Below are positions 49,354 to 61,799 of a stretch of DNA of 64,000 nt, piece by piece. Under the pieces are notes generated by a model, which worked only from the letters and a program-made list of their open reading frames with translations, was not told where the DNA came from and ran no database searches. Made by a program: the position numbers and the translations under genes. The DNA is from Octopus vulgaris (Eukaryota), in the NCBI GenBank assembly GCA_951406725.2, contig OX597824.1:30256001-30320000 (forward strand). The letters are read 5' to 3'. Position 1 is the stretch's first letter; every line of letters begins with the position of its first letter.

Positions 49354-49659
49354 TCAATTAATATTTGTAAATTTAAGATCAAAACTGTCTGCATGGTTGG
49401 TAAATAAAAAATCAAAGTCCTCCATGGAAGATATACTAGAACTGCATGAAAGAAGGTTGTCTTCACACATGCTTGCTAGGTTCCTTGTTACAATATGAGC
49501 ACAACATGGCTGAGCAATATGATCTTCGAGGATCCGAGTTAATTCAGTTTCGAAACTATGTGGTTTACTGCAACAGCAACAAGGCTCTTCGAAGGTGAGA
49601 AAAGAACTGCTAACATCTACGAGATCATCAATGTCGTCCACCAAACAATAATGACAGGC
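49354..49659 (-). CDS. Unknown CxxC-repeat gene, terminal exon (ACHYCLVDDIDDLV...EEPCCCCSKPH...PCCAH...FTNIN*)
   Basis: tttttcag acceptor in phase 0, 101 open codons, TGA, AATAAA about 10 nt after the stop (49343-49338). Confidence 0.7.
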   Translation of the reverse strand, partial: ACHYCLVDDIDDLVDVSSSFLTFEEPCCCCSKPHSFETELTRILEDHIAQPCCAHIVTRNLASMCEDNLLSCSSSISSMEDFDFLFTNHADSFDLKFTNIN

Positions 49660-50087
49660 CTGAAAAATATCGATTTTACATTTTATAATTCAATATTTCT
49701 CAAAAGATAGTATATATCAGCTGAGTAAGAGTGTGTGCATTTATATATGTGCATATGTATATATATAGGGAGAATTCACAAAAAAAAAAGATGAAGACAG
49801 GTGGCATAGACGACAAACAGATGGCTTAGTATAATGCTCGTGAATTGAAAAAGTCTTTAACATTTCAAGCCTACGCTCTTCCACAGAAAGGAACACAGAA
49901 AGAAACAAGGAGAGAAAAAAATGTGTGTAGTGGCTAGCGATCTATCATGGCAAAATCAATGTGTGTGTGTTTATATATTTATATTGTGAAATTTGATTTA
50001 ATACTAAATTGAATTTTTCCCTGTAAGTTTGGAGTTATACTCCCTAATATTATTATTATTATTATTATTATTATTATATATATATAT

Positions 50088-50466
50088 AGGCATAGGAGTG
50101 GTTGTGTGGTAAGTAGCTTGCTTACCAACCACATGATTCCGGGTTCGGTCCCATTGCGTGGCACCTTGGGTAAGTGTCTTCTACTATAGCCTCGGGCCAA
50201 CCAGAGCCATGTGAGTGGATTTGGAAGACGGAAACTGAAAGAAGCCCATCGTATATATGTGTGTGTTTGTGTGTCAGTATTTGTCCTCCCAACATCGCTT
50301 GACAACCGATGCCGGTGTGTTTACGTCCTCGTAACTTAGCAGTTCGGCAAAAGAGACCGATAGAATAAGTACTAGGCTTACAAAGAATAAGTCCTGGGGT
50401 CGATTTACTTGACTAAAGGCAGTGCTCCAGCATGGCCACAGTCAAATGACTGAAATAAGTAAAAGA
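50088..50466 (+). mobile_element. SINE family A copy
   Basis: Full length, close to the other well-preserved copies. Confidence 0.88.
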
Positions 50467-50687
50467 TATATATATATATATATATATATATATATATATA
50501 TATATATATGCATGTGTGTGTGTGCATCATGGGTATGAATGTTGACATTCCATGGCTACCACAAACATACACTATAACACTGACACCATAGAGACACCAA
50601 GACACTATTTATTTTTCACAGTGGAAGGAAAAAAATTTTAACCCCTTTAAAATTTGAATATAAAAGGAGTCAATGTTCAATGATTAC

Positions 50688-50750
50688 TTGCATAGTGAAC
50701 AGTGATATCTTGGATTTGACAAGCCTCTTTGGTTATAGTGGCTGTTGCAG
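50688..50750 (-). pseudogene. Degenerate extra repeat exon (..KEACQIQDITVHYA)
   Basis: Clear homology to the 3' half of exon F, but its tag/gtaat boundaries give phase 1-1; read in phase 0 it hits TAA at codon 6. Confidence 0.5.
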
Positions 50751-50897
50751 CTATGACAGATAAATGCAAACTAATGCAGTTGTTAGGCTGAGCTACTTTG
50801 TGAGGCTCAAGGATAGCTCACAAATTAATCCTTGAAATTTAAGCATCAAAATTTCTTAATGAAGATCTCAGATGTTCTACACACACAGACACTTCAT

Positions 50898-57985: not shown

Positions 57986-58899
57986 AATCCGTACGTCAAA
58001 GTCGACCTCGGCGAAATTTGAACTCAAAATGTAAAGACAGACGAAATACTGTTAAGCAGTTCACCCAATGCACTAAGGCTTCTGCCAGCTCGCCGACTTA
58101 GAATGTAAACATTCATTTTAGAAATATATTCTTTATTCTTATTGCTTAAGCGTTACTCCCTTACTTACTGACATTAATTTTTGTAACATTTTATCTCATA
58201 ACTCATTTTCTACTCAGTTTTGTTCAATGCAACTAGCAATTCTGAATTCCTCATGCATTTTGCTATCATTTAAGCCAAAGAAAAGTATACTTTTAATTTA
58301 AAATTTAAAAATTTATGTTAATTGAAGATGAATATCTGCCTTATTGCCTCCTTTGAGGTTGCAGATATTTTGATGTAACTGTTTTTCTACTGAACCAAAT
58401 ATCAAACTATTTAGGCCAAAGTGTAGCTGAGGAGGTGTCCTCTTTAAAGCAATTAACAGTTTGCAATTTAGTTGAGAACTGAATTAGTGGTGAAGCTTGG
58501 AAGCTGCTGTGATTGATGAAATGGTGGACTTAAGAATATATTCAACCACTACCATGGTTGAATGATAGGATGATGATGAACAACTTGACTAGTTTACAAT
58601 TACTTGTGAAAAAATGAGACACGTAACAGTTTATAGAAGAGATAAAATAAACACAGCTGATATTACCAATGGTAATAACCAGGTGAAATTTAGTTGAGTT
58701 CTTCTTCAGATCATTCTACAAAAAGAGATCTTGGTAGTTTAAACATTCCACAATAAGGTTAAATATATGGCTATATACATAAATATATTTACAACTTATT
58801 TGTAGGCACTCTGTCTCAAGACTATTGCTAAAAAGTACACACATACACATATATATGAGGTGTAAGGTGTTATTGTACAGTAGTTTGGAGTTTTGAATC

Positions 58900-60120
58900 C
58901 CTGACAAAGCCTGTTACTTAAACTCTTCAACTTATATCTGTTGTCTCTGGCTGTTTTCCGTGAATAAACTGGGTTTTCTCTTTTTGGTGTGTTATTATAG
59001 GATTTTAGTTGCAGTTTATATTTTTTTAAATCAGATTTGGATTGCAGTCACAGATTTTTGTCTTTGGGTGTTTTCATTGAAATTAAAGAAGTTAGGATGA
59101 ATTTCAGTTTCACAATGATAAATCCTTTTCCAATTAGGTCCGGATCCTTTGGGAATTTTTCCATCCAAAATTATATAGCTTCTATTCTGTATTGATGAGG
59201 AATTGAGGTGTAGAGATTTATTATGTTGAATGAGACCAAAGGAGAGTTTATGCTGGTTTTGTTCAGGATATGGTTTAAAAAGTTCAGGTCATCTCTTGTG
59301 AGGCTCAGCATATGTTGAAGAATAGGTTTTAGGAGGATGTCAATGAAGTTACTCAGTTTGTGTATCTCACAGGACAGACCAGCCACAACTGGCTTCACTT
59401 TGAGATCTCTTGGATGTGGAATATTAATGACTAAAGAAGTATATCTGCTACATGCTTCATTTATGGCTTCATTCTTGTGGATTTTTGGAAGTCCATAAAA
59501 GTTGCTGGGTTTGCAGTCAAATTTTTCTTTTCCATTAAATATTGTTGGAACTGATAGATGAGGGTAGTAAACTTTGTCATTATTTTAGATTGACTGTTGA
59601 TTTTTTTGTAGTAGGTATTGTCTTGAAGGAGGGTTAGGGTAGTGTTTATGTATTGTCCTTGTCCATGATGACTACAGAACTCCCTTTATCAGCTTGTTTG
59701 ATAACCATATTATAATCATCCTTGAGATCATTAATGATTTCCCATTCTTCTCAGCTTGTATTTGTTTTCAATTTCCAATGAGGGAGTAAATTATAGGGGA
59801 AATTGGATACCAAATCATGAAGTTTATCCAGAGTTTGGTTTCTCCCTTTTGTCAGACTATAGTTGGTTTTATTATGAAGTATTGAATGATCATTAATTTC
59901 TTTATCAAATACTTCTTCAGTGACTCAAAGTTTTCTATAGAATTCCTGGACATTGTTCTGCATCTCATTTAAATTCAACTTTTGTGGTGTTGGGGTGAAC
60001 TTCAGTCCTTATGAGAGAAATTTGGTTTGTTAGCTTGACAGGGTTTTATGCAAGATATTTCTAATCTTTGGGATCTCACATTTGGTTGATGCCATCGAGT
60101 CCCCTGTTTTAGGCCCAGAA
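58900..60120 (-). mobile_element. Penelope-like element RT fragment, degenerate, in the intron between repeat exons B and C
   Basis: KQADKGSSVVIMD, FYGLPKIHK, PVVAG and LVSFNIINLYTSIP motifs. Confidence 0.8.
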
Positions 60121-60233
60121 TACCTAAAAAATGGTTCCTTGGTTTTTGGTGCATATATATACATGCATACACAAGAAAGAGATCTTGATGACAACGTTAA
60201 TCTGGATAGAGATAAAATATGATATAAACCTAC

Positions 60234-60395
60234 CTGTTCTTGTTTAGCAAGGTCTATATCAATTTCTCCAAGTTGTCTGGTCTCTTGGGGTCCACTGATC
60301 ATTTTGGGTGAAGCAGATGTTGAAGCAACCTTAAATTGTTTACATATCTTACATCTTTGCATCTTGTTACCAGTCACTAAATATTCAACAGTATC
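60234..60395 (-). CDS. Unknown CxxC-repeat gene, repeat exon B (DTVEYLVTGNKMQRCKICKQFKVASTSASPKMISGPQETRQLGEIDIDLAKQEQ)
   Basis: ttctttttag/gtagg; 162 nt, phase 0-0; 152/162 nt identical to exon A. Confidence 0.8.
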
Positions 60396-61637
60396 CTAAA
60401 AAGAAGAACAGTTAAATGAATTATACTTGGGATGCATATAAATTTACATGTAGATATTAGAAAAATATAGTTAAACGAACAGAACTCTACAAAATTTAAC
60501 AACTTTCTCATAACCAGTTTGTGTGTATGCTTAATTCTTTTGTTATCATATTTCTGTTGAGATGCTCTGTATTTCTTTCAATTAATTCTAAATATAACAA
60601 AGAATTTAGTAAAGTAACTTAGTGTTAGTAACATAAATTATGACAAAGGTTTGGTGGAAGATTTTAATTCAGAACTTTTGAAAACGAGACATTTGTACTA
60701 CAGAGCCAGAAGCAATTTCAGGCAGATTAGTATCAAAAGGGAGAAGCACTACATTCAATACAACGAAACAATAGTTTACAGTTACTTGTGAAAAGTGAGA
60801 CAAGTAACAATTGCTAGAAAAGATAAAGTTAATACAGTTGATGAGCTGGTAGCAACCAGGTGAAATTTACTTGAGTTCTTTAAATCATTCAACAAAAAGA
60901 GATCTTGGTGGTTTAAACATTCCACAACACGGTTAAATATATGGCTATACATGTAAATATATTTACAACTTATCTGAAGGCACTCTGTCCCAAGACTATT
61001 ACTAATAAATACACACATGCATGCGTGTGTGTGTGTGTGTATGTGTGTGCATTTCATGATATAGTTGGGAAATAAGAGGAGTATCCATGACATTTACAGC
61101 TCCTACAAAAAAGTATGATAGCATGTGAAAAATTGGAAGTCTTGAAATTTTTTAACTTAACTGTCTCAAGCCACCTGCTTTCACAACACTTCAGCATCCC
61201 TTTGGGTCCCCTAGAGGACCGCAGACCCCAGTTTGAGAACAACTGCTCTAGATGGTCGCATGAACTGCTCGAGACAGTATCTTGGTCACGCTAGGATGTT
61301 TTTCATCATGAACCTGCTCAATCAAATTAACCAGAGGCCACACAACAACATATATACATATGTGCGTGTGTATATATATATATATATATATATATATTTA
61401 TATATATAGTGGTTGGTGCTAGGAAGGGCATCCAACTGTAGAAACAATGCCAAATCAGACTGGAGTCTGATGCAGCTCCCCAGCTTGCCACCTCCAATCA
61501 AACAGTCCAACACAGGCTGGCATGGACAACAGATGCAAATTGATGATGATGATGATATATATATATAAGCACAAAAGAGAGGGATCTTGATAACTATGTA
61601 TATCTGCAGAAAGAGATAAAATATAATATAAACCTAC

Positions 61638-61799
61638 CTGTTCCTGTTTAGCAAGGTCTATATCAATTTCTCTAGGTTCTATGGTCTCTTGGGGTTCACT
61701 GATCATTTGGGGTGAAGCAGATGTTGAAGCAACCTTAAATTGTTTACATATCTTACATCTTTGCATCTTGTTACCAGCCATTACATATTCAACAGTATC
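61638..61799 (-). CDS. Unknown CxxC-repeat gene, repeat exon A (DTVEYVMAGNKMQRCKICKQFKVASTSASPQMISEPQETIEPREIDIDLAKQEQ); upstream exons beyond the window
   Basis: ttctttttag/gtagg; 162 nt, phase 0-0. Confidence 0.8.

Follow-up and report, generated by a model that had tools for sequence, protein, structure and literature searches.

Six short exons in a stretch of 64,000 nucleotides (nt) of the Octopus vulgaris genome (assembly GCA_951406725.2, contig OX597824.1, positions 30,256,001 to 30,320,000; hereafter, the window) belong to a real spliced gene, and the exons of the window make up the 3' quarter of an annotated, uncharacterised BTB-BACK gene whose long tail is encoded by a tandem array of CxxC repeat exons. 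The original prediction had reported these six segments, A to F, as parts of an unrecognised gene. Its reading of the DNA was accurate in most points: all six are on the minus strand, bounded by AG/GT, of 162, 162, 144, 132, 126 and 129 nt, stop-free and in phase 0-0, and splicing joins them, with the frame kept, to a terminal exon containing CHYC, CCCC and CC and followed by AATAAA, giving 386 amino acids (aa) inside the window. What has to be withdrawn is the term unrecognised, because the exons upstream encode a BTB and a BACK domain and the gene had already been annotated automatically.

A BTB-BACK gene with a tandem array of repeat exons

The extent of the gene was obtained by reading 160 kb beyond the window, whose numbering is continued here past 64000 (position on contig C11 = number + 30,256,000). 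As the original prediction had anticipated, this yielded the 5' exons: a BTB-BACK head, a middle region and seven repeat exons. The full O. vulgaris model, which lies entirely on the minus strand, comprises 18 coding exons, 5,118 nt and 1,705 aa, with all introns GT-AG and a single open frame (Table 1). The array is larger than the six copies proposed earlier: seven further intact repeat exons, one 5'-truncated copy and the four upstream exons were found beyond 64000. Exons 5 to 17 are 13 intact phase-0 repeat exons in tandem, ten of them with a CxxC motif, which is absent from R0, R2 and F; with the truncated R7 and a degenerate remnant, the two broken ones, 15 copies were counted. B is a recent duplicate of A (91% identity over 377 nt, flanks included). 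The terminal exon is not homologous to the repeat, and profile comparison gave no match that would make either this exon or the middle region the origin of the repeat.

The homology of the segments was upheld by leave-one-out profiles: for each of F, R0, D, E and R1, all 500 shuffles scored lower than the real sequence. The consensus first proposed for them holds in part: CxxC is present in five of the six window segments, with F lacking it, and D lacks the first four consensus residues in this genome. In three species exon D begins at different points, giving lengths of 44, 46 and 48 aa, which means that its acceptor has shifted (window 54738-54881).

That the gene is real and spliced is supported by a contig presumed to come from RNA and by orthologous models in three Octopus species. 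Contigs were mapped for 4 of the 24 listed sequencing runs, which are neither recorded as RNA nor labelled by tissue, over the stretch 53600-62300, which ends short of the E-F and F-terminal junctions. A 394-nt contig of run X1, presumed to be RNA, aligns to 55955-56178 and then to 60233-60397, free of mismatches over 389 nt, and a one-base ambiguity in it fits an exact B-to-C splice. Of the 90 candidates in a search with the terminal exon, three proteins were retrieved, those of O. sinensis, O. bimaculoides and O. vulgaris, and this exon is 100% identical to the end of the O. sinensis protein. The same gene stands in the databases as CAI9729897.1 (O. vulgaris), LOC118765495 and LOC106876992, all of them automated annotations, under the names 'uncharacterized', 'BTB domain-containing' and 'actin-binding IPP'. 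CAI9729897.1 carries A, B, C, E and F exactly, and the longest models contain 12 repeats in O. sinensis, 13 in this genome and 14 in O. bimaculoides. Word-seeded searches named no orthologue outside Octopus, which is weak evidence and does not establish a restriction to octopods. An orphan or non-coding repeat was rejected in view of the orthologues, the BTB-BACK domains, the full open model and a frame retention beyond the neutral expectation (see below).

The head of the protein carries a BTB domain (aa 46-150; Pfam 71.6 bits against a cut-off of 20.5, E 7e-20) followed by a BACK domain (aa 170-254; 59.6 bits against 20.9, E 4e-16), and these are the only Pfam families above cut-off in all three orthologues. 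Its closest sequence matches in the PDB are KEAP1, KLHL3, KBTBD2 and KLHL11, and the ESM Atlas places it, at 0.93, close to BTB-BACK-DUF4734 clusters of arthropods and BTB-BACK clusters of chordates. The KLHL/KBTBD proteins (KEAP1, KLHL3, KLHL11, IPP) share this N-terminal pair of domains; the octopus protein differs from them in having neither kelch repeats nor the phi-x-E motif and, instead, a low-complexity tail of about 1,400 aa. No kelch repeat was found in any of the three orthologues at E 0.1, and the label 'actin-binding IPP' was rejected for that reason. The protein is thus a member of the BTB-BACK class and not a KLHL/IPP protein.

The tail repeat, by contrast with the head, matches no known domain in Pfam, among PDB chains, by profile search or by Foldseek, as had been suspected from the first reading. 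Pfam gave only sub-threshold matches, in two of seven segments, with zf-CXXC reached by exon D alone at 15 bits against a cut-off of 26.5. A profile of the 13 copies, run against 1,835,955,588 representatives, returned one protein at E <= 0.001, which is the gene's own cluster; in its own genome all nine matches (12 candidates scored) fall at this locus; and the best ESM Atlas score, 0.76, is a lead only. In the literature searched, no paper naming LOC118765495, LOC106876992 or CAI9729897.1 was found, nor any description of the gene among the matches listed. The gene was already known to automated annotation and tandem duplication of symmetric exons is a familiar process; the repeat, its pattern of selection and the motif loss discussed below appear undescribed in the sources searched.

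The nearest relative of the gene is a paralogue, an intronless frame of 1,001 aa on the plus strand (G000:C5:87335407-87338412; L036:5407-8412), which is annotated in the other two species too (LOC118763563 and LOC106876854) and which a nine-row tree, albeit one with long branches, placed together with this gene at 100/99. The two resemble each other in the BTB-BACK region (39% over exon 2), in an MGxxxS start, in a repetitive tail and in the lack of phi-x-E and of kelch repeats (none in the paralogue at E 0.05). They differ in that the paralogue is a single exon, and possibly a retrocopy, with an acidic Glu/Gly-rich repeat tail unrelated to the CxxC repeat; this Glu/Gly tail varies between species. 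Octopus has two sister BTB-BACK genes, both without kelch and the Cul3 motif, and the repeats in their tails are unrelated. What was selected would thus seem to be a long multivalent tail and not its sequence.

Table 1. Exons, broken copies and signals of the gene, in window numbering continued beyond 64000.
Feature	Position	Strand	Remarks
Coding exons 1-4	101771-101426, 99370-98884, 98298-98208, 94939-92957	-	BTB-BACK head and middle region
Repeat exon R0	88838-88719	-	no CxxC
Repeat exon R1	84318-84175	-	intact repeat
Repeat exon R2	81755-81594	-	both cysteines lost
Repeat exon R3	79375-79226	-	intact repeat
Repeat exon R4	77585-77436	-	intact repeat
Repeat exon R5	75681-75520	-	intact repeat
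Repeat exon R6	73695-73534	-	intact repeat
Truncated copy R7	67669-67541 (L011:3541-3669)	-	5' part missing; CKIC, in-frame AG, donor retained
Repeat exon A (exon 12)	61638..61799	-	54 aa, CKIC; in CAI9729897.1 and O. sinensis models
Repeat exon B (exon 13)	60234..60395	-	54 aa, CKIC; joined to C in one contig
Repeat exon C (exon 14)	56036..56179	-	48 aa, CMIC
Repeat exon D (exon 15)	54738..54869	-	44 aa, CNAC; skipped in O. vulgaris model CAI9729897.1
Repeat exon E (exon 16)	53653..53778	-	42 aa, CDIC
Repeat exon F (exon 17)	51580..51708	-	43 aa, diverged, no CxxC
Degenerate remnant, 3' half of an F-like copy	50689..50751	-	tblastn E 1e-4; usable acceptor not seen
Terminal coding exon 18	49354..49659	-	101 aa, 10 Cys (CHYC, CCCC, CC), TGA stop; starts ACHYC
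AATAAA	49338..49343	-	11 nt past the stop; candidate polyadenylation signal

Selection on the reading frame, the splice sites and a pair of cysteines

In a tree of 25 units each outer repeat of O. vulgaris has a single counterpart in O. bimaculoides. These copies of the array are therefore older than the split of the two species and were kept; the central repeats were duplicated later. Between O. sinensis and O. bimaculoides, identity is 97% in BTB-BACK, 82% in nine orthologous repeats and 87% in the terminal exon, and all 23 cysteine positions of ten orthologous segments are kept. Among the copies themselves, the maximum-likelihood ratio of nonsynonymous to synonymous rates (omega) is 0.97 for 12 copies and 0.88 for 8 core copies, and constraining it to 1 lowers the log-likelihood by 0.02 and 0.18 units, respectively; these estimates supersede a dN/dS of 0.73 from pooled pairwise counting. 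The exons are barely more alike than their own flanks, and insertions or deletions of 2-6 residues separate the copies.

The original prediction had argued that open frames and splice sites kept across such diverged copies speak for a real gene, and a neutral simulation bears the argument out. The simulation used substitutions only and started from R6 along the tree of the 12 intact copies among the 15 (R0 and the two broken ones being excluded); in none of 2000 runs were all 12 copies stop-free with AG/GT, as they are in the genome, the mean being 0.64 of 12. The cysteines stand out in the same way: CxxC is intact in 10 of the 12 copies against a neutral mean of 2.9, a value of at least 10 being reached in 0.2% of runs (P 0.002); no copy has a single cysteine, which occurred in 0.6% of simulations (P 0.006); and the two Cys columns have changed once and twice, where the 47 columns average 4.7 changes. 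This pattern indicates that the cell requires in-frame units and paired cysteines, and little else. The array offers a clean example of an exon series in which selection holds frame, splice sites and one Cys pair while the rest drifts, and its repeat has no match in the libraries searched.

It could be argued that the array is a tolerated expansion of spacer, whose copies need only stay in frame and whose cysteines were kept for some minor reason or through recent duplication or conversion. An omega that does not differ from 1, exons hardly more similar than their flanks, a copy number of 12, 13 or 14 in the longest models of the three species and the unrelated acidic repeats in the tail of the paralogue would all suit this explanation, which we nevertheless consider improbable, since the outer repeats were kept one-to-one across the O. 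vulgaris/O. bimaculoides split and the cysteines are retained beyond neutrality and lost only as a pair. As judged from these sequences, such pairwise loss would speak for chelation or disulfide formation and against acylation of each cysteine on its own.

The Cys-pair selection is compatible with the metal binding that had been predicted for neighbouring repeats, and also with disulfides; the neutral rate outside the cysteines makes a conserved, folded domain for metal binding less likely. The repeat has in common with zinc ribbons and other CxxC...CxxC sites a CxxC placed after a predicted beta hairpin, AlphaFold2 modelling the single repeat as a hairpin-CxxC-strand unit with a predicted local distance difference test (pLDDT) score of 54. 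Zinc ribbons, however, have two CxxC in one folded unit, whereas here there is one per roughly 50 aa, so that a four-cysteine site would need two repeats. A fold search with the single-repeat model gave no match at Z >= 2 among 48,161 chains, the model being too poor for this to count.

A different kind of order, in which the tail would be a structural polymer of stacked beta strands, a solenoid or a functional-amyloid-like fibre held together by disulfides, such as might occur in sperm or the cytoskeleton, is suggested by the AlphaFold2 single-sequence model of the tail, in which long strands recur in the first four repeats and whose top Foldseek match is the amyloid FapC (E 0.025), and by the conserved alternating hydrophobics of I-x-I-x-L. 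The model, with a pLDDT of 36 and a Foldseek probability of 0.09, is too poor to carry weight, and an omega near 1 together with the indels of 2-6 residues suits in-register stacking poorly; we hold such a polymer to be quite improbable. Among the better-kept columns of the repeat alignment are 25-30 and 45-49, with S-T-S, S-P and I-x-I-D-L; there may be a loose similarity to SPOP degrons, sites of proline-directed phosphorylation and SUMO-interacting motifs.

The Cul3 motif and the possible role of the predicted protein

The head of this protein is examined here at the motif that serves Cul3 binding. In KLHL3 the phi-x-E motif is M83-S84-E85, and the mutation E85A severely disrupts Cul3 binding, as described in the accessible text of PMC3616122. 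At the aligned triplet, in the loop between alpha3 and beta4 of the BTB domain, KLHL3, KEAP1 and KBTBD2 have M-S-E, L-R-E and L-S-E, the octopus gene has I-N-H in O. vulgaris and S-N-H in O. bimaculoides, and the paralogue has D-K-L or D-K-R. The glutamate is thus absent from all five aligned rows of orthologues and paralogue, and the motif is kept in three of four control BTB-BACK sequences. The first position differs between O. bimaculoides and the other two species in spite of the 97% identity of BTB-BACK between O. sinensis and O. bimaculoides. A role as Cul3 adaptor is, on this sequence evidence, doubtful for the predicted protein.

The gene could still encode a Cul3 substrate adaptor, with a head that binds Cul3 through a diverged surface and a repeat tail that replaces kelch as the substrate arm. 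Cul3 is usually bound through a BTB-BACK module, the closest PDB sequences are those named above, the head is the most conserved part of the protein (97% against 82% in the repeats), and Cul3-binding surfaces vary outside the phi-x-E region, as far as the accessible text of PMC3616122 describes them. With the glutamate lost throughout, the hydrophobic position unfixed (I or S) and a neutrally drifting tail that would make a poor specific receptor, we regard this alternative as unlikely.

We would instead put at about an even chance the reading that the protein is a membrane-anchored multivalent scaffold and not a Cul3 adaptor. BTB domains generally dimerise or oligomerise, and the BTB-BACK head would do so here. 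The MGxxxS start, which fits the N-myristoylation consensus, has G2 and S6 in all seven N-termini (four of this gene, three of the paralogue). Myristoylation at this start, perhaps together with S-acylation of the Cys clusters in the last exon, would tie the protein to a membrane. The tail would be largely disordered, its repeat region having a FoldIndex of -0.04 against +0.19 for BTB-BACK and its single-sequence model a pLDDT of 36. Each CxxC would act as a half-site, the motifs of two repeats pairing around zinc, most likely, or being oxidised to a disulfide, so that tails become cross-linked, and the skipping of symmetric exons would set the number of cross-linking units.

The closest model for such a protein is PEI-1 of Caenorhabditis elegans, which has BTB-BACK and a disordered tail, forms sperm granules and needs S-palmitoylation for its sorting, and a predicted N-myristoylation site is noted for human BTBD7 (both in the accessible text of bioRxiv 2020.12.10.417311). 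PEI-1 and human BTBD7, BTBD18 and GMCL1 share with the octopus protein a kelch-less BTB-BACK, to which a putatively disordered tail and putative lipid-anchor sites would be added; the accessible descriptions of these four contain no exon-encoded CxxC array, and the likeness is known here from architecture. By this analogy a germline role, the male germline being favoured, is a tentative suggestion to which we give slightly less than even weight. The full picture, in which an octopod, Cul3-independent BTB-BACK condensate or fibre at the membrane, cross-linked by zinc or disulfides and with its valency set by skipping among 12-14 exons, would have arisen convergently with the PEI granules, is a long shot. 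If the scaffold reading is true, the gene would let one see in nature how a condensate responds to its valency, with isoforms differing by whole units; knowledge of BTB proteins or of exon duplication in general is left unchanged.

The cassette splicing proposed originally for the symmetric exons appears in automated models. Of 14 O. sinensis RefSeq models, seven skip whole repeat exons, four contain half-exon hybrids, one ends at C and two have the full set. No skipping junction was present among the contigs listed for the four runs over 53600-62300, where repeat-derived contigs crowd the mapping.

Several points weigh against the scaffold and its splicing: (i) the control sequence L029 also lacks the glutamate, so that motif loss is no proof of lost Cul3 binding; (ii) B-C is the only junction seen directly, in one contig of depth 3.2 from a run whose RNA status is guessed; (iii) that contig runs unspliced 81 nt into the C-D intron; (iv) skipping is seen in automated models without their reads, and the four half-exon hybrids among the 14 look like misalignment; (v) PEI-1 is nematode-specific by sequence, which makes the likeness one of architecture only (accessible text of bioRxiv 2020.12.10.417311); and (vi) tissue data for the gene were not found, and its identifiers did not turn up in the searched supplements of PMC11202624, PMC9699675, PMC6341066, PMC9712504 and PMC9068888.

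Isoforms, annotation and neighbouring elements

CAI9729897.1 differs from our model in skipping R0 and D and in its C-terminus. It departs from the terminal exon behind ...PCCAHI, where a GT is present (window 49492), and its end is unlike that of both other species; this deviating C-terminus is probably an annotation error. In three O. sinensis models (X2, X9 and X12) the 5' half of R6 is fused with the 3' half of R7, a join that may be real or misaligned. Contigs of run X1 lie on unique sequence of the C-D intron (window 55140-56035), some other unique intron bins being near zero, and the O. sinensis model X13 likewise ends at exon C; a retained C-D intron or a short isoform is possible. An AATAAA at 55349-55354 in this intron is a candidate for an alternative 3' end, but one X1 contig lies downstream of it.

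The intron upstream of exon A holds an element of the long interspersed nuclear element (LINE) type, with a 741-codon frame on the minus strand (window 62368-64000, continuing into L011) that encodes a reverse transcriptase (RVT_1, E 7e-30) together with a Cys region resembling a PHD finger; similar-looking fragments lie at L011:2285-2968, L011:5241-6008 and L012:351-1148. At the 3' end of the frame there is a GC-rich 17-bp tandem repeat of 6.7 copies (window 62416-62527). The E-F intron contains a 212-bp inverted pair, 84% identical and resembling a miniature inverted-repeat transposable element (window 51818-52028 and 52197-52407).

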